From assembly GCA_038087875.1 (NCBI GenBank), contig CM075988.1, positions 124,001-188,000 of the forward strand: a stretch of 64,000 nt of DNA, written 5' to 3'. This document shows, piece by piece, positions 5,036-62,323 of this stretch. How positions within the stretch are numbered: position 1 is the first letter of the stretch; every line of letters starts with the position of its first letter. A program made the position numbers and the translations under genes. The stretch is from Malacoraja senta (Eukaryota). The notes below the pieces were generated by a model that did not search any database, had not been told where the DNA came from, and saw nothing but the letters and a program-made list of their open reading frames with translations.

Positions 5036-8000
5036 GAAACATAGAAACATAGAACATAGAAAATAGGTGCAGGAGTAGGCCATTCGGCCCTTCGAGCCTG
5101 CACCGCCATTCGATATGATCATGGCTGATCATCCAACTCAGTATCCTGTACCTGCCTTCTCTCCATACCCTCTGATACCACAAGGGCCACATCTAACTCC
5201 CTCTTAAATATAGCCAATGAACTGGCCTCAACTACCTTCTGTGGCGGAGAATTCCAGAGATTCACCACTCTCTGTGTGAAAAATGTTTTCCTCATCTCGG
5301 TCCTAAAAGATTTCCCCCTTATCCTTAAACTGTGACCCCTTGTTCTGGACTTCCCCAACATCGGGAACAATCTTCCTGCATCTAGCCTGTCCAACCCCTT
5401 AAGAATTTTGTACGTTTCTATAAGATCCCCCCTCAATCTTCTAAATTCTAGCGAGTACAAGCCAAGTCTATCCAGTCTTTCCTCATATGAAAGTCCTGAC
5501 ATCCCAGGAATCTGTCTGGTGAACCTTCTCTGCACTCCCTCTATGGCAAGAATGTCTTTCCTCAGATTAGGAGACCAAAACTGTACGCAATACTCCAGAT
5601 GTGGTCTCACCAAGACCCTGTACAACTGCAGTAGAACCTCCCTGCTCCTATACTCAAATCCTTTTGCTATGAATGCTAACATACCATTCGCCTTCTTCAC
5701 TGCCTGCTGCACCTGCATGCCTACTTTTAATGACTGGTGTACCATGACACCCAGGTCTCGTTGCATCTCCCCTTTTCCTATTCGGCCACCATTCAGATAA
5801 TAGTCTACTTTCCTGTTTTTGCCACCAAAGTGGATAACCTCACATTTATCCACATTATACTGCACCTGCCATGCATTTGCCCACTCACCCAGCCTATCCA
5901 AGTCACCTTGCAGCCTCCGAGCATCCTCCTCACAGCTAACACTGCCCCCCAGCTTCGTGTCATCCACAAACTTGGAGATGTTGCATTCAATTCCCTCGTC
6001 CAAATCATTAATATAAATTGTAAATAGCTGGGGTCCCAGCACTGAGCCTTGCGGTACCCCACTAGTCACTGCCTGCCATTGTGAAAAGGACCCGTTTACT
6101 CCTACACTTTGCTTCCTGTCTGCCAGCCAGTTCTCTATCCACATCAATACTGAACCCCCAATACCGTGTGCTTTAAGTTTGTATACTAATCTCTTATGTG
6201 GGACCTTGTCGAAAGCCTTCTGAAAGTCCAGATATAACACATCCACTGGTTCTCCCTTATCCACTCTACTAGTTACAACCTCGAAAAATTCTATAAGATT
6301 CGTGAGACATGATTTACCTTTCATAAATCCATGCTGACTTTGTCCAATGATTTCACCTCTTTCCAAATGTGCTGCTATCCCATCTTTAATAACTGATTCT
6401 GGCAGTTTCCCCACTACCGACGTTAGACTAACTGGTCTGTAATTCCCCGTTTTCTCTCTCCCTCCCTTTTTAAAAAGTGGGGTTACATTAGCTACCCTCC
6501 AATCCTCAGGAACTACTCCAGAATCTAAAGAGTTTTGAAAAATTATCACTGATGCATCCACTATTTCTGGGGCTACTTCCTCAAGTACTCTGGGATGCAG
6601 CCCATCTGGCCCTGGGGATTTATGGGCCTTTAATCCATTCAATTTACCTAACACCACTTCCCGGCTAACCTGGATTTCACTCAGTTCCTCCATCTCATTT
6701 GACCCCCGGTCCCCTGCTATTTCCGGCAGATTATTTATGTCTTCCTTAGTGAAGACAGAACCAAAGTAGTTATTCAATTGGTCTGCCATGTCCTTGTTCC
6801 CCATGATCAATTCACCTGTTTCTGACTGCAAGGGACCTACATTTGTTTTAACTAATCTTTTTCTCTTCACATATCTATAAAAGCTTTNNNNNNNNNNNNN
6901 NNNNNNNNNNNNNNNNNNNNNNNNNNNNNNNNNNNNNNNNNNNNNNNNNNNNNNNNNNNNNNNNNNNNNNNNNNNNNNNNNNNNNNNNNNNNNNNNNNNN
7001 NNNNNNNNNNNNNNNNNNNNNNNNNNNNNNNNNNNNNNNNNNNNNNNNNNNNNNNNNNNNNNNNNNNNNNNNNNNNNNNNNNNNNNNCCCTTTCCTAATT
7101 AAGCCCTTTGTCCTCCTCTGCTGGATTCTGAATTTCTCCCAGTCCTCTGGTATGCTGCTTTTTCCTGGCTAATTTGTATGCTTCATCTTTTGTTTTGATA
7201 CTATCCCTGATTTCCCTTGTTATCCATGGATGCACTACCTTCCCTGATTTTATTTTTTTGCCAAACTGGGATGAACAATTGTTGTAGTTCATCCATGCAG
7301 TCTTTAAATGCCTTCCATTGCATATCTACCATCAACCCATTAAGAATCAATTGCCAGTCTATCTTGGCCAATTCACTTCTCATACCCTCAAAGTTACCTT
7401 TCTTTAAGTTCAGGACCCTTGTTTCTGAATTAACAATGTCACTCTCCATCCTAATGAAGAACTCAACCATATTATGGTCACTCTTGCCCAAGGGGCCACG
7501 CACAACAAGACTGCTAACTAACCCATCCTCATTACTCAATTACCCAATCTAGAATAGCCTGCTCTCTCGTTGGTTCCTCTACATGTTGGTTTAGAAAACT
7601 ATCCCGCATACATTCCAAGAAATCCTCTTCCTCAGCACCCCTGCCAATTTGATTCACCCAATCTATATGTAGATTGAAGTCACCCATTATAACTATTTTT
7701 ACCTTTGTTGCACGCATTTCTAATTTCCTGTTTTATGCCATCCCCAACTTCACTACTACTGTTAGATGGCCTGTACACAACACCCACCAGCGTTTTCTGC
7801 CCCTTAGTGTTTCGCAGCTCTACCCATATAGATTCCACATCCTCCAAGCTAATGTCGTTCCTTTCTATTGCGTTAATCTTCTCTCTAACCAACAACGCTA
7901 CCCCACCTCCTTTCCCTTTCTGTCTATCCCTCCTGAATATTGAATATCCCTGGATGTTCAGCTCCCAGCCTTGGTTACCCTGGAGCCATGTCTCCGTGAT

Positions 8001-8060
8001 CCCAACTATATCATAGTCATTAATAGCTATCAGCACATTCATTAATAGCTATCAGCACAT
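5036..8060 (-). mobile_element. CR1 LINE, 5'-truncated ORF2 (partial APE endonuclease + RT), copy 1; spans a 200-N gap
   Basis: ORFs 7680-8042, 7532-7717, 7201-7539 and 5119-6870 contain endonuclease motifs (GITETW, GGGVALL, MGDFN, SDHN) and RT motifs ([33 protein letters not shown]). Frameshifts are present. (CTATGTTT)n tail at about 5036-5062. Confidence 0.95.
6888..7087. other. Assembly gap (200 N)
   Basis: Run of N. Confidence 1.
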
Positions 8061-8663
8061 CAGCTAAGAGGACCCACAATCCTGTTTATATCAATGAGTC
8101 GATGGTGGAGTCAAAAACTTCAAATTCCTGGGCGTGCATATTTCCGAAGATCTTTCCTGGTCCCAGCACACGGATGCCATCATAATGTAAGCACATCAGC
8201 GCCTCTACTTCCTGAGAAGATTACGGAGAGTCGGCATGTCAAAGAGGACTCTCTCTAACTTCTACAGGTGCACGGTAGAGAGCATGCTGACTGGTCGCAT
8301 CGTGACCTGGTTCGGCAACTTGAACGTCCAGGAGCGGAAAAGACGGCAAAAAAGTTGTGACCACTGCCCAGTCCATCACCGGCTCTGACCTCCCCACCGT
8401 CGAAGGGATCTGTCGTAGTCGCTGCCCCAAAAAGGCAGCCAACATCATCAGAGACCCACACCATCCTGGCCACACACTCATCTCACCGCTGCCATCGGGA
8501 AGAAGGTGCAGGAGCCTGAAAACTGTAACGTCCAGGTTCAAGAACAGCTTCTTCCCTACACCCATCAGGCTATTAAACATGACAATGAATAAGCTCTGAA
8601 ATACAATAGACTATTATTATTATTATTATTATTATTACACTATTATTGTCTGTTATTTGAGTA

Positions 8664-8696
<33 letters not shown>

Positions 8697-8840
8697 TGTG
8701 AGCATGTGTGAATACACACTGAACAGTTTTTTTTCCCTCTCTCGTTTATACCATACTATGTTTACATATTCTGTTGTGCTGCAGCAAGTAAGAATTACAT
8801 TGATCTATCTGGGACACCTGACAATAAAACACTCTTGACT
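8061..8840 (+). mobile_element. Rex1/Babar-type LINE 3' fragment, copy 1 (degraded)
   Basis: Encodes FKFLGVHISEDLSWSQHT...QRLYFLRRL...HPGHTLISPLPSGRR...RFKNSFFP, with a stop and a frameshift. The 3' UTR has (TAT)n and (TG)n and ends gacaataaaacactcttgacttga. Confidence 0.8.
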
Positions 8841-9071
8841 TGAAACCAGCACCTTCAGTTCCATCTCAACTAACCACTTGGTGGGGAATCATCAGCTGGC
8901 AGCTCCATCTGGTGTCGACGCAAGGAACTGCAGATGCTGGTTTAAACCAAAGATGGACAGAGGGTGTTGCACAACTCTCGTCGGAGAGAGGTGGAGAACC
9001 TCTTCAAAGTAGACATACCTTGAGGAGATTTCGCCAGTGGAGCGGACAAAAAATGTGTAGGAAGGAACTGC

Positions 9072-9707
9072 AAAAGGATTTGAGTATAGGAGCAGGGAGA
9101 TTCTACTGCAGTTGTACAGGGTCTTGGTGAGACCACACCTGGAGTATTGCGTACAGTTTTGGTCTCCAAATCTGAGGAAGGACATTATAGCCATAGAGGG
9201 AGTGCAGAGAAGGTTCACCAGACTGATTCCTGGGATGTCAGGACTTTCATATGTTGAGAGAATATGGATAGACTCGGCTAATACTCGCTAGAATTTAGGA
9301 GATTAAGAGGGGATCTTATAGAAACGTACAAAATTCTTATGGGGTTGGACAGGCTAGATGCAGGAAGATTGTTCCCGATGTTGGGGAAGTCCAGGACAAG
9401 GGGTCACAGCTTAAGGATAAAGGGGAAATCCTTTAAGACCGAGATGAGGAAAAACTTTTTCACACAGAGAGTGGTGAATCTCTGGAACCCTCTGCCACAG
9501 AGGGTAGTTGAGGCCAGTTCATTGGCTATATTTAAGAGGGAGTTAGATGTGGCCCTTGTGGCTAAAGGGATCAGGGGGTATGGAGAGAAGGCAGGTACGG
9601 GATACTGAGTTGGATGATCAGCCATGATCATATTGAATGGCGGTGCAGGCTCGAAGGGCCGAATGGCCTACTCCTGCACCTATTTTCTATGTATCTATGT
9701 ATCTATG
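9072..9707 (+). mobile_element. CR1 3' fragment
   Basis: Encodes LVRPHLEYCVQFWSP...YGEKAGTGY, followed by the 3' UTR and a (CTATGTAT)n tail. Confidence 0.9.
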
Positions 9708-9733
9708 TTAGTTCCCTCTCCTCTGACATCAGA

Positions 9734-9815
9734 CTGAAGAAGGGTCTCGACCCGAAATGTCACCAGAGACGCTGCCTGTCCCGCTGAGATACTCCAGCTT
9801 TTTGTGTCTATCTTC
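9734..9815 (+). mobile_element. Penelope-like terminal repeat with minimal hammerhead-ribozyme-like motif
   Basis: CTGAAGA-A-GGGTC-TC-GACCC-GAAA-T-GTC at 9734-9761, followed by the recurring gctgcctgtcccgctgag(a/t)tactccagc unit. Duplicate at 16603-16630. Confidence 0.65.
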
Positions 9816-10129
9816 GGTTTATACAAAATAGTCTCTTAAACGCCACTACCGTATCTGCCCCCACCACCACCCCTGGCAGCGTGTTCCAGGCACCCACCAC
9901 CCTCTGTGTAAAAAACTTGCACTCAATTTTGAAAAACTAAATTTTTCACTGTATCTCGGTACACCTGACTATATTAAACCAGTCCCAATATTAGTGATGA
10001 TGTCCCCTGACTCCGCCATCTTTAAGAGCCCTATCTAGCTCTCTCTTGAAAACATCCAGAGAACCGGCCTCCACCGCCCTCTGAGGCAGAGAATTCCACA
10101 GACTCACCACTCTCTGTGTGACAAAGTGA

Positions 10130-10370
10130 TTACACCAGCACTATCCTACACACACAAGGGACATTTTACAATTTTACCAAAGCCAATTAACCTACACACC
10201 TGTATGTCTTTGGAGTGTGGAAGGAAATGTGGAGCACCCGGAGAAACATCGCGCAGGTCACGGGAGAACGTACAAAACTCCGTACGGACAGCGGCCGTAG
10301 TCAGGATCGAACCTGGGGTCTCTGGGGCTGTGAGGCAGCAGCTCGACCGCTGCACCACTCTGCTGCCCTT
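10130..10370 (-). mobile_element. HE1-like SINE (duplicate at about 16998-17238)
   Basis: Reverse complement of the SINE head and core at 2055-2358. Confidence 0.75.
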
Positions 10371-10374
10371 GTTA

Positions 10375-10808
10375 AGGGGCTGTCCCACTTGGGTGACCTA
10401 ACCCGCGAGTTCTGGCGAGTTTGCCCTCGACTCGTACTCGCAGCATGGTCGACACGAGGTCCTAGGAGGTCTTCGTAACTCTCCTTCATGCTCGAGAGTG
10501 GTCCCGGCGTACTCGAGGCCTCAGCTAGGCCGTGGCGTCTTTTTCAACATGTTGAAAAATGCCCGCGAGTAAAAAAAGGTCGCCCTGGAAAAAATCGATA
10601 CTTTTTTACTCGTGGGTTTAGTCGAGGTAGGTCGTAGTAGGTCAGCATGTTAGTCCTAGGTAATCGAGGGAAGTCGAAGGTGGTCGAAGGTAGCTAGTCT
10701 TCAACATAGTCGAAGGAGGTCGAAGGAGGTCTTCAACATGACATTTTTTCAAACTCTCCTGAACTCTTCTAAACTCGCCAATTAGGTTGCCCAAGTGGGA
10801 CAGCCCCT
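10375..10808. mobile_element. Non-autonomous PIF/Harbinger-like MITE
   Basis: TIRs AGGGGCTGTCCCACTTGGG...CCCAAGTGGGACAGCCCCT, an internal palindrome TTCAACATGTTGAA, and T/A-rich flanks. No coding capacity. Confidence 0.8.
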
Positions 10809-10875
10809 ATACCATAGATTTTGGCTCAACAGTGGGGAGAGAGCTCCCCTGCTGCCACTGACTGGTATCTCTGAA

Positions 10876-11004
10876 GGTGGACAAAAATGCTGGAGAAACT
10901 CAGCGGGTGAGGCAGCATCTACGGAGCGAAGGAAATAGGCAACGTTTCGGGTCGAAACCCTTCTTCCTTCTTCCTTCTTCCTTCTCACAGTTCCTTCTTA
11001 AACA
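10876..11004 (-). mobile_element. Penelope-terminus-derived insertion with 15-bp TSD
   Basis: ACTGGTATCTCTGAA at 10861-10875 and 11005-11019. The minus strand carries GAAGAAGGGTTTCGACCCGAAACGTT, a degenerate hammerhead core. Confidence 0.7.
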
Positions 11005-11367
11005 ACTGGTATCTCTGAATTCACAGACAACAATAAAAGGCATTCATGGCATCGCAGTGTTTAAGAAAGAACTGCAGATGCTGGAAAAATCGAAGGAAGA
11101 CAAAAATGCGGGAGGAACTCAGTGGGTGACGCAGTGTCTATGAAGCGAAGGAATTGCTCCATAGATGCTGCCTCACCCGCTGAGCTTCACCAGCATTTTT
11201 GTCGACCATGGAGTCACAGAGTCACACAGCACGGAAACAGGCCCTTCAGCCCAACACACCCGTGCCGACCAATGTTGTCTTTCAGGGCAGCATCCTGAAT
11301 CACTCATCTCCATCTCACCAATGCCCCACTGCCCTTCTATAAACCTCTGGATATCAAGTCAGTAGGT

Positions 11368-11815
11368 TAGCATATGATGAGCGTTTGTCGGCACTGGGCT
11401 GTACTCGCTGGAGTTTAGAAGGGTGAGGGGGGGGACCTCATTGAAATGTACAGAATAGTGAAAGGCCTGGATAAAGTGGATGTGGAGAGGATGTTTCCAC
11501 TAGTGGGAGAGTCTTAGGCCTAGAGGTCACAGCCTCAGAATTAAAGGATGTTCTTGTAGGAAGGAGATGAGGAGGAATTTCTTTAGTCAGAGGGTGGTGA
11601 ATCTGTGGGATTCATTGCCGCAGACGGCTGTGGAGGCCACGTCAGTGGATACTTTTTAAGGCAGAGATAGATAGATTCTTGATTAGTGCGGGTGTCAGAG
11701 GTTATGGGGAGAAGGCAGGAGAATGGGGTTAGGAGGGAGAGATAGATCAGCCACGATTGAATGGTGGAGTAGACTTGATGGGCCGAATGGCCTAATTCTA
11801 CTCTGATCACTTATT
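11368..11815 (+). mobile_element. CR1 3' fragment, second subfamily (duplicate at 18203-18650)
   Basis: Encodes YDERLSALGLYSLEFRR...RVVNLWDSLP, followed by the 3' UTR. Confidence 0.85.
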
Positions 11816-12032
11816 ACTTTAAGATCTTATGACAGGATAAGGAGGATATGGGCAAAAAACAAGCCTGTTTCCACGCTGTATCACTCTGTAGGGGCAAGGA
11901 ATGGCAGACACTGGTTTACACAATAGTACACAGAGTGCTGGAGTAACTCAGCGGGTGGGTCAGGCAGCATCAGTGGAGAACATGGATAGGTGACGTTTCA
12001 CAGAGTGCTGGAGTAACTCAGCGGGTCAGGCA

Positions 12033-14905
12033 ACATAGAAACATAGAAACATAGAAAATAGGTGCAGGAGTAGGCCATTCGGCCCTTCGAGCCTGCACCG
12101 CCATTCAATATGATCATGGCTGATCATCCAACTCAGTATCCCGTACCTGCCTTCTCTCCATACCCCCTGATCCCTTTATCCACAAGGGCCACATCTAACT
12201 CCCTCTTAAATATAGCCAATGAACTGGCCTCAACTACCTTCTGTGGCAGAGAATTCAGAGATTCACCACTTTCTGTGTGAAAAATGTCTTTCTCATCTCG
12301 GTCCTAAAAGACTTCCCCCTTATCCTTAAACTGTGACCCCTTGTTCTGGACTTCCCCAACATCGGGAACAATCTTCCTGTATCTAGCCTGTCCAAACCCT
12401 TAAGAATTTGTAAGTTTCTATAATATCCCCCCTCAATCTTTTAAATCCTAGCGAGTACAAACCGAGTCTATCCAGTCTTTCTTCATATGAAAGTCCTGAC
12501 ATCCCAGGAATCAGTCTGGTGAACCTTCTCTGCACTCCCTCTATGGCAAGAATGTCTTTCCTCAGATTAGGAGACCAAAACTGTATGCAATACTCCAGGT
12601 GTGGTCTCACCAAGACCCTGTACAACTGCAGTAGAAACTCCCTGCTCCTATACTCAAATCATTTTGCTATGAATGCTAACATACCATTCGCTTTTTTCAC
12701 TGCCTGCTGCACCTGCATGCCTACTTTCATTGACTGGTGTACCATGACACCCAGGTCTCGTTGCATCTCCCCTTTTCCTAATCGGCCACCGTTCAGATAA
12801 TAGTCTACTTTCCTGTTTTTGCCACCAAAGTGGATAACCTCACATTTATCCACATTACACTTCATCTGCCATGCATTTGCCCACTCACCCCAGCCTATCC
12901 AAGTCACCTTGCAGCCTCCGAGCATCCCCCTCACAGCTAACACTGCCCCCCAGCTTCGTGTCATCCGCAAACTTGGAGATGTTGCATTCAATTCCCTCGT
13001 CCAAATCATTAATATATATCGTAAATAGCTGGGGTCCCAGCACTGAGCCTTGCGGTACCCCACTAGTCACTGCCTGCCATTGTGAAAAGGACCCGTTTAC
13101 TCCTACTCTTTGCTTCCTGTCTGCCAGCCAGTTCTCTATCCACATCAATACTGAACCCCCAATACCGTGTGCTTTAAGTTTGTATACTAATCTCTTATGT
13201 GGTACCTTGTCGAAAGCCTTCTGAAAGTCCAGATATAACACATCCACTGGTTTTCCCTTATCCACTCTACTAGTTACATCCTCGAAAAATTCTATAAGAT
13301 TCGTCAGACATGATTTACCTTTCATAAATCCATGCTGACTTTGTCCAATGATTTCACCTCTTTCCAAATGTGCTGCTATCCCATCTTTAATAACTGATTC
13401 TAGCAGTTTCCCCACTACCGACGTTAGACTAACACGTCTGTAATTCCCTGTTTTCTCTCTCCCTCCCTTTTTAAAAAGTGGGTTACATTAGCTACCCTCC
13501 AATCCTCAGGAACTACTCCAGAATCTAAAGAGTTATGAAAAATTATCATTAATACATCCACTATTTCTGGGGCTACTTCCTCAAGTACTCTGGGATGCAG
13601 CCCATCTGGCCCTGGGGTTTTATCGGCCTTTAATCCATTCAATTTACCTAACACCACTTCCCGGCTAACCTGGATTTCACTCAGTTCCTCCATCTCATTT
13701 GACCCCCGGTCCCCTGCTATTTCCGGCAGATTATTTATGTCTTCCTTAGTGAAGACAGAACCAAAGTAGTTATTCAATTGGTCTGCCATGTCCTTGTTCC
13801 CCATGATCAATTCACCTGTTTCTGACTGCAAGGGACCTACAATTGTTTTAACTAATCTTTTTCTCTTCACATATCTACAAAAGCTTTTGCAGTCAGTTTT
13901 TATGTTCCCTGCCAGTTTTCTTTCATAATCTATTTTCCCTTTCCTAATTAAGCCCTTTGTCCTCCTCTGCTGGACTCTGAATTTCTCCCAGTCCTCTGGT
14001 ATGCTGCTCTTTCTGGCTAATTTGTACGCATCATCTTTTGCTTTGATACTATCCCTGATTTCCCTTGTTATCCACGGATGCACAACCTTCCCTGATTTAT
14101 TCTTTTGCCAAACTGGGATGAACAATTTTTGTAGTTCATTGATGCAGTCTTTAAATGCCTTCCATTGCATATCCACCGTCAACCCTTTTAGAATTAATTG
14201 CCAGTCTATCTTGGCCAATTCACTTCTCATACCCTCAAAGTTACCTTTCTTTACGTTCAGGACCGTTGTTTCTGAATTAACAATGTCACTCTCCATCCTA
14301 ATGAAGAACTCAACCATATTATGGTCACTCTTGCCCAAGGGGCCACGCACAACAAGACTGCTAATTAACCCTTTCTCATTACTCAATACCCAGTCTAGAA
14401 TAGCCTGCCCTCTCGTTGGTTCCTCTACATGTTGGTTTAGAAAACTATCCCGCATACATTCCAAGAAATCCTCTTCCTCAGCACCCCTGCCAATTTGATT
14501 CACCCAATCTATATGTAGATTGAAGTCACCCATTATAACTGTTTTACCTTTATTGCACGCATTTCTAATTTCCTGTTTGATGCCATCCCCAACTCCACTA
14601 CTACTGTTAGGTGACCTGTACACAACTCCCACTAGCGTTTTCTGCCCCTTAGTGTTTCGCAGCTCTACCCATATGGATTCCACATCCTCCAAGCTAATGT
14701 CCTTCCTTTCTATTGCGTTAATCTTCTCTCTAACCAGCAACGCTACCCCACCTCCTTTCCCTTTCTGTCTATCCCTCCTGAATATTGAATATCCCTGGAT
14801 GTTCAGCTCCCAGCCTTGGTCACCCTGGAGCCATGTCTCCGCGATCCCAACTATATCATAGTCATTAATAACTATCTGCACATTCATTAATAGTTATCAG
14901 CACAT
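12033..14905 (-). mobile_element. CR1 LINE, 5'-truncated ORF2, copy 2 (apparently chimeric)
   Basis: ORFs 13424-14887, 12885-13415, 12659-13063 and 12383-12625 carry APE and RT motifs (FADD). It has the same 5' truncation junction as copy 1 and the same 3' flank as copy 3. Confidence 0.95.
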
Positions 14906-15683
14906 CAGCTATGAGGACCCACAATCCTGTTTATATCAATGAGTCGACGGTGGAGTCAAAAACTTCAAATTCCTGGGCGTGCATATTTCCGAAGATCTTT
15001 CCTGGTCCCAGCACACGGATGCCATCATAAAGCAAGCACATCAGCGCCTCTACTTCCTGAGAAGATTACGGAGATTCGGCATGTCAAAGAGGACTCTCTC
15101 TAACTTCTACAGGTGCATGGTAGAGAGCAAGCTGACTGGTCGCATCATGGCCTGGTTCGGCAACTTGAACGTCCAGGAGCGGAAAAGACGGCAAAAAGTT
15201 GTGACCACTGCCCAGTCCATCACCGGCTCTGACCTCCCCACCGTCGAAGGGATCTATCATAGTCGCTGCCCCAAAAAGGCAGCCAACATCATCAGAGACC
15301 CACACCATTCTGGCCACACACTCATCTCACCCCTGCCATCGGGAAGAAGGTACAGGAGCCCGAAAACTGTAACGTCCAGGTTCAAGAACAGCTTCTTCCC
15401 TACAGCCATCAGGCTATTAAACATGACAATGAATAAGCTCTGAAATACAATAGACTCTTATTATTATTATTATTATTACACTATTATTGTCTGTTATTTG
15501 AGTATGTGTGTATGTGTGTGTGTGTATGTATATATATTGTGAGCATGTGTGAATACACACTGAACAGGTTTTTTTCCCTCTCTCGTTTATACCATACTAT
15601 GTTTACATATTCTGTTGTGCTGCAGCAAGTAAGAATTTCATTGATCTATCTGGGACCTGACAATAAAACACTATTGACTCTTG
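14906..15683 (+). mobile_element. Rex1/Babar-type LINE 3' fragment, copy 2
   Basis: ORF 14979-15443: HISEDLSWSQHTDAIIKQAHQRLYFLRRLRRFG...RFKNSFFPTAIRLLN. Confidence 0.85.
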
Positions 15684-15947
15684 AAACCAGCACCTTCAGT
15701 TCCATCCAAACTAACCACTTGGTGGGGAATCATCAGCTGGCAGCTCCATCTGGTGTCGACGCAAGGAACGGCAGATGCAGAGGTTTATACAATATGTGTA
15801 GGAAGGAACTGCAGATGCTGGTTTAAACCAAAGATAGACAGAGGGTGTTGCACAACTCTCGTCGGAGAGAGGAGGAGAACCTCTTCAAAGTAGACATACC
15901 TTGAGGAGATTTCGCAGTGGAGCGGACAAAATGTGTAGGAAGGAACT

Positions 15948-16580
15948 GCAAGAGGATTTGGGTATAGGAGCAGGGAGGTTCTACTGCAGTTGTACAGGGT
16001 CTTGGTGAGACCACACCTGGAGTATTGCGTACAGTTTTGGTCTCCAAATCTGAGGAAGGACATTATAGCCATAGAGGGAGTGCAGAGAAGGTTCACCAGA
16101 CTGATTCCTGGGATGTCAGGACTTTCATATGAAGAAAGACTGGATAGACTCGGCTTATACTCGCTAGAATTTAGGAGATTGAGAGGGGATCTGATAGAAA
16201 CGTACAAAATTCTTATGGGGTTGGACAGGCTAGATGCAGGAAGATTGTTCCCGATGTTGGGGAAGTCCAGGACAAGAGGTCACAGCTTAAGGATAAGGGG
16301 GAAATCCTTTAAGACCGAGATGAGGAAAAACATTTTCACACAGAGAGTGGTGAATCTCTGGAACTCTCTGCCACAGAAGGTAGTTGAGGCCAGTTCATTG
16401 GCTGTATTTAAGAGGGAGTTAGATGTGGCCCTTGTGGCTAAAGGGATCAGGGGGTATGGAGAGAAGGCAGGTACGGGATACTGTTGGATGATGAGCCATG
16501 ATCATATTGAATGGTGGTGCAGGCTTGAAGGGCCGAATGGCCTACTCCTGCACCTATTTTCTATGTATCTATGTATCTAT
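15948..16580 (+). mobile_element. CR1 3' fragment (duplicate of 9072-9707)
   Basis: ORF 15990-16595 is a CR1 ORF2 C-terminus. Confidence 0.9.
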
Positions 16581-17243
16581 GTTTGTTCTCTCTGACATCA
16601 GTCTGAAGAAGGGTCTCGACCCGAAATGTCACCAGAGACGCTGCCTGTCCCGCTGAGATACTCCAGCTTTTTGTGTCTATCTTCGGTTTATACAAAATAG
16701 TCTCTTAAACGCCACTACCGTATCTGCCCCCACCACCACCCCTGGCAGCGTGTTCCAGGCACCCACCACCCTCTGTGTAAAAAACTTGCACTCAATTTTG
16801 AAAAGCTAAATTTTTCACTGCATCTCGGTACACCTGACTATATTAAACCAGTCCCAATATTAGTGATGATATCCCCTGACTCCGCTATCTTTAAGAGCCC
16901 TATCTTGCTCTCTCTTGAAGGCATCCAGAGAACCGGCCTCCACCGCCCTCTGAGGCAGAGAATTCCACAGACTCACCACTCTCTGTGTGACAAAGTGATT
17001 ACACCAGCACTATCCTACACACACAAGGGGCATTTTACAATTTTACCAAAGCCAATTAACCTACACACCTGTATGTCTTTGGAGTGTGGAAGGAAACGTG
17101 GAGCACCCGGAGAAACATCGCGCAGGTCACGGGGAGAACGTACAAACTCCGTACGGACAACGCCCGTAATCAGGATCGAACCTGGGGTCTCTGGGGCTGT
17201 GAGGCAGCAACGCGACCGCTGCACCACTCTGCTGCCCTTGTTA

Positions 17244-17679
17244 AGGGGCTGTCCCACTTGGGTGACCTAATCCGCGAGTTCTGGCGAGTTTGCCCTCGAC
17301 TCATACTCGCAGCATGGTCGACACGAGGTCCTAGGAGGTCTTCGTAACTCTCCTTCATGCTCGAGAGTGGTCCCGGCGTACTCGAGGCCTCAGCTAGGCC
17401 GTGGCGTATTTTTCAACATGTTGAAAAATGCCCGCGAGTTATAAAAAGGTCGCCCTGGAAAAAATCAATACTTTTTTTTACTCGTGGGTTTAGTCGAGGT
17501 AGGTCGTAGTAGGTCGGCATGTTGGTCCTAGGTAATCGAGGGAAGTCGAAGGTGGTCGAAGGTAGCTAGTCTTCAACATAGTCGAAGGAGGTCGAAGGAG
17601 GTCTTCAACATGACATTTTTTCAAACTCTCCTGAACTCTTCTAAACTCGCCAATTAGGTTGCCCAAGTGGGACAGCCCT
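17244..17679. mobile_element. Harbinger-like MITE (duplicate of 10375-10808)
   Basis: Same TIRs and same flanks. Confidence 0.8.
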
Positions 17680-18758
17680 ATACCATAGATTTTGGCTCAA
17701 CAGTGGGGAGAGAGCTCCCCCTGCTGCCACTGACTGGTATCTCTGAAGGTAGACAAAAATGCTGGAGAAACTCAGCGGGTGAGGCAGCATCTACGGAGCG
17801 AAGGAAATAGGCAACGTTTCGGGTCGAAACCCTTCTTCCTTCTTCCTTCTTCCTTCTCACAGTTCCTTCTTAAACAACTAGTATCTCTGAATTCACAGAC
17901 AACAATAAAAGGCATTCATGGCGTCGCAGTGTTTAAGAAAGAACTGCAGATGCTGGAACAATCGAAGGAAGACAAAAATGCTGGAGGAACTCAGTGGGTG
18001 AGGCAGCATCTATGAAGCGAAGGGATTGCTCCATAGATGCTGCCTCACCCGCTGAGCTTCACCAGCATTTTTGTCGACCATGGAGTCACACGCCCGTGCC
18101 GACCCATGTTGTCTTTCAGGGCAGCATCCTGAATCGCTCATTCTCCATCTCACCAACGCCCCACTGCCCTTCTATAAACCTCTGGATATCAAGTCAGTAG
18201 GTTAGCATATGATGAGCGTTTGTCGGCACTGGGCCTGTACTCGCTGGAGTTTAGAAGGGTGAGGGGGGACCTCATTGAAATGTACAGAATAATGAAAGGC
18301 CTGGATAGAGTGGATGTGGAGAGGATGTTTCCACTAGTGGGAGAGTCTAGGATTAGAGGTCACAGCCTCAGAATTAAAGGATGTTCTTGTAGGAAGGAGA
18401 TGAGGAGGAATTTCTTTAGTCAGAGGGTGGTGAATCTGTGGGATTCATTGCCGCAGAAGGCTGTGGAGGCCAAGTCAGTGGATACTTTTTAAGGCAGAGA
18501 TAGATAGATTGTTGATCAGTACAGGTGTCAGAGGTTATGGGGAGAAGGCAGGAGAATGGGGTTAGGAGGGAGAGATAGATCAGCCACGATTGAATGGCGT
18601 AGACTTGATGGGCCGAATGGCCTAATTCTCCTCTGATCACTTATTACTTTATGATCTTATGACAGGATAAGGAGGATATGGGCAAAAAACAAGCCTGTTT
18701 CCACGCTGTATCACTCTGTAGGAGCAAGGAACGGCAGACACTGGTTTACACAATAGTA

Positions 18759-18923
18759 CACAGAGTGCTGGAGTAACTCAGCGGGTCAGGCAGCATCTGT
18801 GGAGAACATGGATAGGTGACGTTTCACAGAGTGCTGGAGTAACTCAGCGGGTCAGGCAGCATCTGTGGAGAACATGGATAGGTGACGTTTCACAGAGTGC
18901 TGGAGTAACTCAGCGGGTCAGGC
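18759..18923. repeat. 66-bp tandem repeat derived from Penelope-like termini (continues 19736-19815)
   Basis: CACAGAGTGCTGGAGTAACTCAGCGGGTCAGGCAGCATCTGTGGAGAACATGGATAGGTGACGTTT starts at 18759, 18825 and 18891. It has fewer units at about 11929-12032. Confidence 0.85.
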
Positions 18924-21657: not shown

Positions 21658-23066
21658 TCTATATAACTAAAAGTCTCATCTTGACCACTTCCAGTCTGTG
21701 CTGTATATTGATTTTAGAAAAAACGCTACCATATATCACTATAATTTTTAGCCATCTTACTCACAGTCCTCCTCCGCTGAGGCAGCCCCGAGGATTTTTC
21801 CGATCGATGAAAAATAAAAACGTTATGAATGTTTAAAACATTTTGAGATTAGCTGATTGGTCCTCTCGCCTGTCAATCACCATGGTGAAGGTAATGGGGG
21901 GGGGGGGGGCAGGACTAGAAAACCCCGGATGCCTGGACGTGAATCAGTCACTTTGGAAGATCGCGGGGGAGAGGCCACAACTTTGATTCTGCTGTGAGTC
22001 TACTGAACTGTGAGTCTACTGAACTGTGAGTCTACCGAACGGTGAGTCTACCTTTTATGTGCTTTATGTGGTTATGTGCTTTATGTGCTAATCTGAGGAA
22101 AGACATTCTTGCCATAGAGGGAGTACAGAGAAGGTTCACCAGACTGATTCCTGGGATGGCAGGACTTTCATATGAGGAAAGACTGGATAGACTCGGCTTG
22201 TACACGTTGGAATTCAGAAGACTGAGGGGGGATCTTATAGAAACTTACAAAATTCTTAAGGGGTTGGACAGGCTAGATGCAGGAAGATTATTACCGATGT
22301 TGGGGAAGTCCAGAACTAGGGGTCACAGTTTAAGGATAAGAGGGAAGACTTTTAGGACCGAGATGAGGAAATCATTTTTACACAGAGAGTGGTGAATCTG
22401 TGGAATTCCCTGCCACAGAAGGTAGTTGAGGCCAGTTCATTGTCTATATTTAAGAGGGAGTTAGATGTGGCTCTTGTGGCTAAAGGGATCAGGGGGTATG
22501 GAGAGAAGGCAGGGATGGGATACTGAGTTGGATGATCAGCCATGATCATATCAAATGGCGGTGCAGGCTCGAAGGGCCGAATGGCCTACTCCTGCACCTA
22601 TTTTCTATGTTTCTATGTTTCTATGTGGTTGCAATAAATGATTTGTTAGCCCTTAATGAAATGAAATGAGTTGTTTGGCCTGCCCTGTGCTTGAAATTGA
22701 AATGGAAATGAAATGAAATGAGTTGTTTGGCCTGCCCTGTGCTTTTGCTTTGCCTTTGCTTTGCTTGACCCCACCTGAAATGAAAGCAAATGGATTGTAT
22801 TGTTGGCTGGCCCGCCTTGACTTGACTTGAAATGGATTGACTTGACATGGAATGGATTGAAATGGATTGTTGGCCCTGCATTCACTGTGCTTGACTTGAC
22901 TTGAGCCACAACACCCACACTAGCACTCCAGAACACCCCCCACCCCCCACCCCCCACCACCGTCCACTGGCCACCAATATTGGAATTGGTGGAGAAGTGG
23001 AATATTGCGTTGGGGGACCAGCCCTCCCGTGTGAACCTGGGACCCAATGGGTCCCACTTAGTCTAG
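21658..23066 (+). mobile_element. Non-autonomous Helitron, plus strand, carrying a CR1 insertion and internal minisatellites
   Basis: 5' end A|TCTATATAACTAAAA. 3' palindrome GGGACCCA-A-TGGGTCCC 7 nt before CTAG|T. A|T target with no TSD. The empty site restores a (GACAATA)n CR1 tail. Internal 16-bp repeat CTGTGAGTCTACTGAA at about 21992-22050. Confidence 0.85.
22087..22625 (+). mobile_element. CR1 3' fragment nested in the Helitron
   Basis: Encodes NLRKDILAIEGVQRRFTRLIPG..., followed by the 3' UTR and (CTATGTTT)n. Confidence 0.9.
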
Positions 23067-23067
23067 T

Positions 23068-23676
23068 AGACAAAAGGTGCAGAAGTAGGCCATTTGGCCC
23101 TTCGAGCCAGCACCACCATTCAATGTGATCATGGCTGATCATCCCGTTCCTGCCCTCCCCATATCCCTTGACTCTGCGTTAAAGAAGGAACTGCAGATGC
23201 TGGAAAATCGAAGGTACACAAAAATGCTGGAGAAACTCAGCGGGTGCAGCAGCATCTATGGAGCGAAGGAAATAGGTAACGTTTCGGGCCGAAACCCTTC
23301 TTCAGACCCGAAACGTTACCTATTTCCTTCGCTCCATAGATGCTGCTGCACCCGCTGAGTTTCTCCAGCATTTTTGTGTACCTTCCCTTGACTCTGCTGT
23401 CTTTAAGAGCCCTATCTAGCTCTCTCTTGAAAGTATCCAGAGAACCGGCCTCCACCGCTCTCTGAGGCAGAGAATTCCACAGACTCACAACTCTCTGTGT
23501 GAAAAAATGTTTCCTCGTCTCCGTTTTAAATGGCTTCCCCCTTATTCTTAAACTGTGGCCCCTGGTTCTGGACTCCCCCGACATCGGGAACACGTTTCAG
23601 GCCTCTAGCGTGTCCAAACCCTTAATAATGTTATATGTTTCAATAAGATTTCCTCTCATCCTTCTAAACTCCAGAG
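23068..23676 (-). mobile_element. CR1 3' fragment interrupted by a Penelope-type fold-back insertion
   Basis: ORF 23237-23593 starts as CR1 (SRTRGHSLRI...FKRELDRAL). The flanks of 23178-23384 rejoin. Confidence 0.85.
23178..23385. mobile_element. Penelope-type inverted-terminus insertion: perfect 79-bp inverted repeat, hammerhead motif, 13-14 bp TSD
   Basis: Arms 23210-23288 and 23307-23385 are exact reverse complements. TSD (T)CCCTTGACTCTGC at 23164-23177 and 23384-23397. Confidence 0.85.
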
Positions 23677-23719
23677 TATTTGTCTGCATTTGGCCAGTTG
23701 CTCTTGAAACCCTTTCAAA

Positions 23720-24748
23720 GTGAATTGGGAGTGCCAGTGCAGGACTCCCAAATAGTTAATTTGCAAGTTGAATCGGTCGGAAGGAAGGCAAATTTAATGC
23801 TAGCATTTATATCAAGAGGACTCGAATACAAAAAACAGGGATGTAATGCTGAGGCTCTATAAGGCGCTGGTCAGGCTGCATGTGGAGTATTGTGAGTAAA
23901 TTTGGGCCCCATATCTGAGGAAGGATGTGCTGGCTCTGGAGAATGTCCAGAGGAGGTTTACAAGAATGATCCCAGGAATGAGTGGGTTAACATATGATGA
24001 GCGTTTGTCGGCGCTGGGCCTGTACTCGCTGGAGTTTAGAAGGTTGAGGGGGGACCCAATTGAAATTTACAGAATAGAAAGAGGCTTGGATATAGTGGAT
24101 GTGGAGAGGATGTTTCCACTGGTGGGAGAGTCTAGGACCAGAGGTCACAGCCTCAGAATTAAAGGGCGCTCTTTTAGAAAGGAGGTGTGGAGGAACCTCT
24201 TTAGTCAGAGGGGAGTTAATATGTGGAATTAATTGCCACAGAGGGCTGCGGAGGCCAAGTTAAAGCCCTGCCCCACGGTACGAGTTCATTCCAAGAGCTC
24301 CCCCGAGTTTAAAAAAAATCAAACTCGTGGTAAGCACGGAGAATGAACGTAGCGGGTACGTCGGAGCTCGGGGACGTCTCTTAGCGGCTCGTAACGGGAA
24401 CGGCAGGTACTCGGGAGACTCGCTAACGGCAGGCAAGCACGGGAAGACTCGTGAAGATTTTTCAACATGTTGAAAAATGTCCACGAGAGCCCCGAGTACC
24501 GACGAGTGGCCATTACCGTAAATCTCCGAGTTCGAATCGGGGCAAACTCGGGAGAACTCTTGGAATGAACTCGTACCGTGGGACAGGGGTTTAAGTGGAT
24601 ATATTTTAAGGCAGAGATCTTGATTAGAATGGGGGGGGGGGGGGGCAAGGGTTATGGTGAGAAGGCAGGAAAATAGGATTAGGAGGCAGAGATCAGCCAT
24701 GATTGAATGGCGGACTAGACTCAATGGGCCGAATTCCACTCCTATAAC
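23720..24748 (+). mobile_element. CR1 3' fragment (second subfamily) interrupted by a MITE
   Basis: ORFs 23680-23862 and 23927-24232 (KANLMLAFISRG..., VQRRFTRMIPGMSGLTYDERL). Confidence 0.85.
24264..24590. mobile_element. MITE with about 47-bp TIRs flanked by TTAA (Harbinger-like termini)
   Basis: AGCCCTGCCCCACGGTACGAGTTCATTCCAAGAG... / ...CTCTTGGAATGAACTCGTACCGTGGGACAGGGGT. TTAA at 24260-24263 and 24591-24594. It shares the TTCAACATGTTGAA core with the 10375 MITE. Confidence 0.82.
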
Positions 24749-24897
24749 TTGTGAACCCTTCCTTGGTGCTGGGATGTGTTTGGGTCGAAGAGTCCCCGCC
24801 CAGTGTGTGGTGTGTGTAGTGTAGAGGGAACTGGGTTTACAAGCTGGTTTGGTTTTTGTTTTACAGGAGTTGTGTGGAGTTGTGAAGAGTGAGTGCC

Positions 24898-25174
24898 ATG
24901 CAGTTCCCCGCACCCTGGTACGTGGAGTTGTCCCCGCTCCTTCCCCACACCCCCCTCCACCCCACGCCCTTTTATATCGAGGATATCCTCGGACGGGACG
25001 GTGCCGGGTTCGAGTCCCGGTCCCGGTCCCGGACCCACCAGCTCGCTGCTGCTCCGCCGCCGCCGTCAGCCTTCTACCCCGACCCGAGTCCCGGCCACCC
25101 CGCTCTGTCTACCCATCTGTACCGGTCAACGCAACGGGGAATCCCACAACGTCTCTGCTCACCTCTGGGACAAG
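24898..25174 (+). CDS. HHEX-like: First coding exon of a divergent HHEX-like (Hex/PRH) homeobox gene; partial, homeodomain exons not found in window
   Basis: GCCATGC start with an in-frame upstream TGA. Encodes MQFPAPWYVELSPLLPHTPLHPTPFYIEDILGR...FYPDPSPGHPAL...LY...SPLGQ. This matches HHEX as I recall it: MQYP start, exact HPTPFYIEDILGR eh1 motif, YEPTPIHPAF-like motif, PLG near the exon end. Phase-1 donor CAAG|GTGAGA. CpG-rich, unique sequence. Candidate acceptor TTTTGTTTTACAG|G at 24866/24867. Confidence 0.78.
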
Positions 25175-26080
25175 GTGAGAGGGGGAAAGAGGGGGAGAGG
25201 GGAGAGAGGGAGAGAAGAGAGAGGGAAGGGGGAGAGGGAAGGGAGAGGGAAGGGGGAGAGGGAAGGGGGGAGAGAGGGAAGGGGGGAGAGGAGGAAGGGA
25301 GAGGGAAGGGGGGAGAGGAAGGGGAGATGGAGGGAGGAGAGGGGAGAGAGGGAAGGGGGAGAGAGGGAAGGGAGAGGAGGGGGGAGAGGAAGGGGGGGAT
25401 GGAGGGGGGAGAGAGGAGAGGGGAGAGAGGGAAGGGGGGAGAGGAGGAAGGGAGAGGAGGGAGAGATGGGGGAGAGAGAAGGGGGAGAGGAGGAGAGGAG
25501 CGGGGGGAGAGGGAAGGGGGAGAGGAGGATGGGAGAGGGGGGAGAGGAGTGGGGAGGGGAAGGAGAGATAGGTGGAGGGAGTGAGAGGGGGGGGAGAGGA
25601 TGGGGAGAGGAGAGGGGGGAGATGGAAAGGAGGAGAGGAGGGGGAGAAGGAGAGAGGGGAGAGGGAGGAGGAGAGAGGAGAAGGAGAGAGGGGAGAGGGA
25701 GAGGAGGATGGGAGAGGAGGAGAGGAGGGGGAGAAGGAGAGACGAGAGGGAGAGGGGGGAGAGAGGGAAGGGGAGAGGGGAGAGGGAGGGAGAGAGAGGG
25801 GGAGGAAAGGGGGAGAGGAGTGGGGAAAGGGAGGAGGGAGGAGAGGAGGGGGAGAGAGGACAGGAGAGAGGGAAGGGGAGAGGAGTAGTGGGGAGAGGAA
25901 GGAGGAGGGGGGGAGGGAAGGGTAGAGGGGGAGAGGAGGAGGGGAGGGTAGGAGGGAGAAGAGGGGGAGAGGAGGGGGGAGGAGGAGGAGGAGGGGAGGT
26001 GAGGGAGAGTGAGGGAGAAAGTTGGGAGGAGTGGAGTGGAGGGGGGGAGGGGGGAAAGAAACACGAGGGAAACAAAAGGA
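25175..26080 (+). repeat. About 900-bp near-pure polypurine (G/A) tract at the start of the intron
   Basis: Almost exclusively G and A on the + strand. Confidence 0.95.
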
Positions 26081-32001: not shown

Positions 32002-32201
32002 NNNNNNNNNNNNNNNNNNNNNNNNNNNNNNNNNNNNNNNNNNNNNNNNNNNNNNNNNNNNNNNNNNNNNNNNNNNNNNNNNNNNNNNNNNNNNNNNNNN
32101 NNNNNNNNNNNNNNNNNNNNNNNNNNNNNNNNNNNNNNNNNNNNNNNNNNNNNNNNNNNNNNNNNNNNNNNNNNNNNNNNNNNNNNNNNNNNNNNNNNNN
32201 N
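32002..32201. other. Assembly gap (200 N)
   Basis: Run of N. Confidence 1.
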
Positions 32202-62123: not shown

Positions 62124-62323
62124 NNNNNNNNNNNNNNNNNNNNNNNNNNNNNNNNNNNNNNNNNNNNNNNNNNNNNNNNNNNNNNNNNNNNNNNNNNNNN
62201 NNNNNNNNNNNNNNNNNNNNNNNNNNNNNNNNNNNNNNNNNNNNNNNNNNNNNNNNNNNNNNNNNNNNNNNNNNNNNNNNNNNNNNNNNNNNNNNNNNNN
62301 NNNNNNNNNNNNNNNNNNNNNNN
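62124..62323. other. Assembly gap (200 N)
   Basis: Run of N. Confidence 1.

Follow-up and report, generated by a model that had tools for sequence, protein, structure and literature searches.

First exon of a chondrichthyan hhex-like gene, a likely ohnologue of HHEX, in the skate Malacoraja senta

The first coding exon and its surroundings

The window (the whole stretch of DNA analysed, 64,000 nucleotides of scaffold C12) contains the first coding exon of an hhex-like gene, a relative of Hhex, which is a regulator gene of liver, thyroid and blood. The following features were assigned, with the basis of each assignment given in brackets.

24845..24866, plus strand: pyrimidine-rich tract and AG, candidate splice acceptor (sequence alone)
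24867..24897, plus strand: putative 5′ UTR portion of exon 1 (sequence; unique among the loci compared)
24898..25174, plus strand: first coding exon of hhex-like (Hhex2), proline-rich N-terminal domain (homology, ORF, tree)
24958..24996, plus strand: eh1-type motif block HPTPFYIEDILGR, predicted to bind TLE/Groucho (motif match)
25015..25032, plus strand: SRSRSR stretch (24-row alignment)
25175..25176, plus strand: phase-1 GT donor, completing a Gly codon with exon 2 on scaffold C1383 (splice phase)
25182..26018, plus strand: GA-rich simple repeat opening intron 1 (repeat analysis)
32002..32201, no strand: 200-N scaffold gap within intron 1 (N run)

Exon 1 starts with an ATG at 24898 and continues for 92 codons and one G up to the GT at 25175–25176, exactly as the initial annotation had it. 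The same annotation described a unique, CpG-rich exon with a good Kozak start. The exon was indeed the single match in a genome search of this assembly, and its CpG richness was borne out, but the start-codon context (GCC-ATG-C), with a purine at −3 and without a G at +4, is adequate rather than ideal. The GC content of the exon is 66%, and its 26 CpG dinucleotides give an observed-to-expected ratio of 0.94, compared to 0.48 across window positions 1–32001; this CpG count was equalled in nine of 613 other 277-nt windows, located at two places. Positions 24801–24900 are repeat-free among the loci compared, and positions 23001–24700 are nearly all repeat. Since a pyrimidine tract and an AG precede position 24867, there may be a non-coding exon further upstream.

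The peptide encoded by exon 1 contains, as had been described, an exact eh1-type HPTPFYIEDILGR block and an SRSRSR stretch, and is missing the PSPNSSF block. Among the 24 aligned rows, SRSRSR was common only to this protein and Rhinoraja hhex-like. A search of 5.8 billion sequences revealed 47–49% identity of the exon 1 peptide to named hhex-like proteins with E-values of 3e-11 and 2.5e-6, which rules out chance similarity; the RefSeq hhex-like proteins of Rhinoraja longicauda and Heptranchias perlo were the sole two matches among 308 candidates for this query. A Pfam scan of exon 1 by itself returned no family, and a homeodomain motif scan over the 64-kb window found none. A search of sequencing runs listed no RNA data set carrying the exon, a result that is uninformative on its expression.

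On the 3′ side, exon 1 is followed by repeats, by the 200-N gap at 32002–32201 and then by a satellite that extends beyond the window end. The satellite occupies 65 kb (window 32202–64000 to about C12:221,000), is CTCA-based with higher periods of 21 and 25 bp, and reverses its orientation across a gap at window 62124–62323. At window 7088–18862 (C12:131,088–142,862), right after the gap at 6888–7087, a 5-kb stretch is tandemly doubled with ~95% identity, which reflects either a local duplication or unmerged haplotypes. Two membrane transporter-like exons lie on the minus strand at C12:252811–252927 and C12:261710–261880. These exons, at 252.8 and 261.7 kb, presumably resemble SLC43A3; this identity was unconfirmed by Pfam and Atlas, and they were not used as synteny markers.

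Exons 2–4 and the assembled reading frame

A search of this assembly with the Rhinoraja hhex-like protein recovered exon 1 and further exons on C1383, a 32-kb unplaced scaffold. All three were identified by the Rhinoraja protein match.

C1383:8202–8381: hhex-like exon 2, AG and GT ends, phase fits
C1383:12433–12483: hhex-like exon 3, AG and GT ends, phase fits
C1383:26590–26853: hhex-like exon 4, AG acceptor, phase fits

The initial annotation had considered exon 1 stranded in a repeat desert and would have taken the lack of both a downstream homeodomain exon and spliced reads as a sign of a relic. Homeodomain exons are present on C1383, and the isolation of exon 1 proved to be an assembly artefact, with a 200-N gap at 32002–32201 and exons 2–4 placed on another scaffold. 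A relic exon or a retrocopy was also rejected, as there are three downstream exons separated by introns. The exon sizes are 277, 180 (179 in a short-read contig), 51 and 264 nt, with intron phases 1, 0 and 0. Canonical HHEX is likewise laid out in four coding exons with intron phases 1, 0 and 0. Every hhex-like exon was single-copy in genome searches, and exon 2 was single-copy by DNA search. When C1383 was compared with the window and its flanks, no unique sequence overlap was found, and no read or contig bridges exons 1 and 2; we therefore infer the exon 1–exon 2 join on the grounds of homology, matching phases and the single copy of each exon. C1383 probably belongs at the 32002–32201 gap inside intron 1.

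Exon 2 carries a frameshift at an A-run in the assembly. A 265-nt short-read contig from run X1 (depth 26.9), which may be the assembly's own sample, is one base shorter at this A-run and is otherwise identical; runs X2 and X3 gave no coverage of the A-run. Because the frameshift is missing from the short-read contig, it is likely an assembly error, a one-base homopolymer excess. Joining of the four exons with the frameshift read through results in 256 codons with no stop.

Two additional observations concern exon 4. A partial duplicate of this exon with an acceptor is located at C1383:29507–29640, 3 kb downstream of the main exon 4, and is possibly an alternative last exon or a decayed tandem copy. 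The Rhinoraja RefSeq model contains nine additional residues (197–205) that correspond to the intron end ahead of the exon-4 acceptor. The sequence behind them is conserved at C1383:26566–26589, and they may reflect the use of another acceptor or be an artefact of gene modelling.

Family membership and chromosomal neighbourhood

The homeodomain encoded by C1383 exons 2 and 3 is of the HHEX type (GGQVRF N-terminal arm, T47, Q50, N51). It is identical to skate HHEX in 48 of 60 positions, with positions 42–56 unchanged; PF00046 was found on the Rhinoraja hhex-like orthologue. The FxIxxIL eh1-type core of the Hhex family, present here as HPTPFYIEDILGR, is conserved in all 17 hhex-like rows and is degenerate in Latimeria. 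PSPNSSF is absent from all 17 hhex-like rows, and PSPNSSFT is found in 21 of 24 canonical ones. The Malacoraja protein shares 64% of its residues with Rhinoraja hhex-like and 40% with Rhinoraja hhex, in agreement with the earlier description of a shorter and strongly diverged protein of a fast-evolving paralogue. Between skate and Heptranchias, identity amounts to 91% for hhex and 48–53% for hhex-like. Canonical HHEX is recognized by about 90% identity among chondrichthyans, the PSPNSSF block and its grouping in the tree, and the Malacoraja protein does not have these properties.

A search with the Heptranchias protein produced 248 matches; among the 120 best listed, the top ranks were occupied by shark and ray hhex-like proteins, apart from named hhex. 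Representatives clustered at 50% identity were searched with a profile, which brought in hhex-like proteins of Callorhinchus and Latimeria and one lamprey Hhex. In a tree of 52 proteins, the Malacoraja gene was sister to Rhinoraja hhex-like (100/100) within a chondrichthyan hhex-like clade that includes chimaera (99/100), and the canonical HHEX proteins of sharks and bony vertebrates formed a clade of their own (96/99). The hhex-like/canonical split was recovered in a 37-row tree rooted on seven invertebrate-type rows, from which another 15 rows, comprising lamprey and long or redundant sequences, had been removed. Placement in the Hhex2 clade was supported by 99/100 and 100/100 across the two trees. 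Both trees omitted hhex-like models that were partial or aberrant, namely those of S. canicula, Stegostoma, M. hypostoma and a draft Chiloscyllium, as well as Cetorhinus and most canonical teleost and tetrapod matches. The Latimeria hhex-like protein forms a long branch, which was found with lamprey on the hhex-like side of the 52-protein tree and inside the canonical clade of the 37-row tree; monophyly of Latimeria and shark hhex-like was not rejected (p = 0.31). An AU test rejected a chondrichthyan-only duplication, in which all chondrichthyan copies are held together (p = 0.0145), and the duplication is therefore older than the shark–bony vertebrate split. We conclude that assignment of the Malacoraja gene to chondrichthyan hhex-like, a paralogue evolving faster than canonical HHEX, is supported.

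The rate of divergence raises the question of whether the same gene, of the same origin, is under relaxed selection in skates and decays into an ineffective repressor. The skate hhex-like branch is long (0.55–0.66, plus end branches of 0.26–0.41), and the 64% identity between Malacoraja and Rhinoraja hhex-like is to be compared with 96% between two canonical HHEX proteins of skates. The homeodomain matches the canonical one in 46–48 of 60 positions in skates, in 55–56 in five sharks and rays and in 51 in Narcine. The frameshift in the assembled exon 2, the absence of a CpG island upstream of exon 1 and the absence of Leucoraja and Amblyraja hhex-like from the best 120 of 248 matches point in the same direction. 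However, the frame is open for 256 codons and the short-read contig does not contain the frameshift. The eh1 block, the recognition helix and all splice sites are preserved while linkers drift, and Leucoraja EXOC6B, a neighbour discussed below, is found on small scaffolds, so this region is poorly assembled in Leucoraja. We consider relaxed selection unlikely, and it stays a minor rival because helices 1–2 of the skate homeodomain have drifted.

Canonical HHEX lies in an IDE-KIF11-HHEX-EXOC6 block, with EXOC6, CYP26A1/C1 and MYOF as neighbours. In each of the 16 named chondrichthyans, and likewise in Latimeria, the contig carrying hhex-like differs in length from the one carrying hhex: Rhinoraja has the two genes on contigs of 143.7 and 49.5 Mb, and Latimeria on contigs of 432 and 150 Mb, respectively. 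Sharks, rays, skates and a chimaera thus keep a second, faster-evolving Hhex copy on another chromosome than the normal hhex. EXOC6B was on a contig exactly equal in size to that of hhex-like in all 14 species with both genes on chromosome-scale contigs (six other hhex-like species are outside this set), which indicates the same chromosome and not adjacency. Accession order loosely tracks chromosomal position, and the hhex-like and EXOC6B accession numbers differ by no more than about 50 in three of 12 pairs (Heterodontus, Mobula hypostoma and Hypanus) and by hundreds to thousands in the remaining nine.

In Malacoraja, the minus strand of C12 carries dysferlin exon 1 at 56.3 kb and exon 2 at 5.9 kb, head-to-head with hhex-like; dysferlin is 92 kb from the hhex-like ATG, with two scaffold gaps between them. 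A PDB comparison matched these exons to dysferlin above myoferlin. Their order and orientation presumably differ from those in human blocks. Scaffold C12 additionally bears at 13.4 Mb an unrelated homeobox that we take to be BSX-like. Together with the dysferlin arrangement, this suggests that C12 may be mis-joined. In this assembly EXOC6B is broken up, with parts on scaffold C3455 and parts near the terminus of C1. There, some 1 Mb away from EXOC6B, a TLX-type homeobox exon is located at C1:394,720,660–394,720,941; we assume that it is probably TLX2 of the EXOC6B paralogous block. Three 98–99% identical EXOC6B exon-1-like copies lie at C18:67217, 130057 and 299989 within a multi-kb segmental duplication; they have no usual donor after the coding part, and one copy has no ATG.

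The initial annotation proposed that a lone HHEX locus syntenic with KIF11 and EXOC6 would simply be the orthologue; the neighbourhood identified here is the EXOC6B/DYSF block. The comparison of trees and synteny with other chondrichthyans that it called for agrees with its suggestion of a possible ohnologue retained from a whole-genome duplication, showing a distinct hhex-like clade and paralogous neighbours as expected for an ohnologue. According to an excerpt of PMC4464114, the Emx1 neighbours Dysferlin, Cyp26b1 and Exoc6b all have 2R paralogues. The EXOC6B/dysferlin linkage fits a duplicated HHEX-EXOC6-CYP26-ferlin block. As EXOC6B and dysferlin form the paralogous block of HHEX-EXOC6-MYOF, hhex-like is likely an HHEX ohnologue from the early vertebrate whole-genome duplications, judging by these neighbours. 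An old small-scale or segmental Hhex duplicate is quite unlikely, given that the duplication predates the shark–bony vertebrate split and that the copy is accompanied by EXOC6B and DYSF, 2R paralogues of the presumed neighbours of HHEX. Such a duplicate would agree with the unstable position of cyclostomes in the trees, and EXOC6B adjacency rests on equal-sized contigs and a few close accession numbers.

The search for a separate canonical HHEX, which had also been called for, succeeded in Rhinoraja, where both genes are present, and not in Malacoraja: here a skate query recovered no canonical HHEX, although such a search detects 25-residue exons at high identity. Searches of the assembly for EXOC6, the KIF11 tail, IDE/nardilysin and myoferlin were also blank. 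The dysferlin FerB exon was blank too, despite the presence of dysferlin exons 1–2; the three FerB matches in the assembly were two otoferlin-like exons and one belonging to dysferlin or myoferlin. Since the canonical-block genes and dysferlin FerB are all blank, the assembly is read as incomplete or only partly covered by the searches, and the blanks as assembly or search gaps, not gene losses. They also mean that the two-copy state is not demonstrated within the Malacoraja genome itself. The hhex-like gene being the sole Hhex-family locus found in this assembly, exon 1 might be taken for the species' only HHEX, a diverged orthologue. This is highly improbable: in the trees the protein falls among hhex-like sequences, away from skate hhex; Rhinoraja possesses both genes; and the blank canonical-block genes and FerB exon reflect an incomplete or only partly covered assembly.

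Predicted function and known relatives

We regard it as probable that exon 1 starts a second Hhex gene, with the rest on C1383, that this gene is an ohnologue, and that it encodes a predicted TLE-recruiting homeodomain repressor. Homeodomain positions 42–56, the recognition helix, are identical in all 18 rows compared, which predicts HHEX-type DNA recognition. HHEX binds TLE/Groucho, and this binding matters for repression, as stated in an excerpt of a review (PMC10313424). With the eh1 core kept, hhex-like probably works as a TLE-recruiting repressor as well. In the proposed scheme, the duplicated HHEX copy would have been retained by taking over part of the ancestral expression domain. Its homeodomain, with the recognition helix unchanged, would bind HHEX-type DNA sites, and its eh1 motif would recruit TLE/Groucho and bring about repression; the trimmed N-terminal domain would be accompanied by a diverged expression pattern. 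Two CK2 serines of HHEX named in the same review correspond, by our numbering, to threonines in the Malacoraja protein.

The gene is already automatically annotated in many chondrichthyan genomes, and is therefore neither a relic nor special to Malacoraja. RefSeq entries such as XP_078264433.1 (Rhinoraja longicauda), XP_067835401.1 (Heptranchias perlo) and XP_007906770.1 (Callorhinchus milii) are automatic predictions of "hematopoietically-expressed homeobox protein hhex-like". They share with the Malacoraja gene the clade, the loss of PSPNSSF, the four-exon layout as far as alignments reach, a GKEYFW-type start of exon 2 and an ELPEDEK-type start of exon 4. In contrast to them, the skate branch is faster, SRSRSR is found only together with Rhinoraja, and the Malacoraja gene is split over two scaffolds. 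A second vertebrate Hhex was undescribed in the full-text literature searched, which leaves subscription journals largely outside; supplements to shark genome papers may list the gene. One published paper reports a single Hhex per animal.

A second Hhex from before the shark–bony vertebrate split is a natural test of how roles in liver, thyroid, pancreas and blood are divided after genome duplication. We tentatively propose that an undescribed Hhex2 ohnologue has survived in every major lineage of cartilaginous fishes and in parallel in the coelacanth, which is also the pattern of Pdx2. If true, the foregut-endoderm network would have a second co-retained duplicate in Hhex2, the published view of one Hhex per animal would be overturned, and studies of shark liver, thyroid and pancreas would have followed just one member of a pair of Hhex genes. 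The second Hhex copy is also relevant to the view expressed in PMC4362833 that Pdx2 was not retained as one of a larger set of preserved pancreas-network duplicates.

Compared with canonical HHEX/PRH, an NKL homeobox protein, hhex-like has the same eh1-type block, KRKGGQVRF entry into the homeodomain, recognition helix, phase-1 intron after the proline-rich exon and acidic C-terminal patch. It differs in overall identity (about 40%), in a shorter N-terminal domain without PSPNSSF, in the homeodomain (48/60), and in lying on a different chromosome, linked to EXOC6B and DYSF. Retained shark ohnologues are a known class, so the kind of system is not new. The nearest precedent is Pdx2, a second copy of an endoderm homeobox gene that arose by genome duplication; according to Mulley and Holland 2010 (PMC2944030), cartilaginous fish and coelacanth retain it, and ray-finned fish and tetrapods have lost it. 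In the coelacanth there is also an hhex-like protein, a candidate orthologue of the shark gene. Unlike hhex-like, Pdx2 belongs to the ParaHox family, and the loss of hhex-like in other bony vertebrates is putative, judged from a sample of them.
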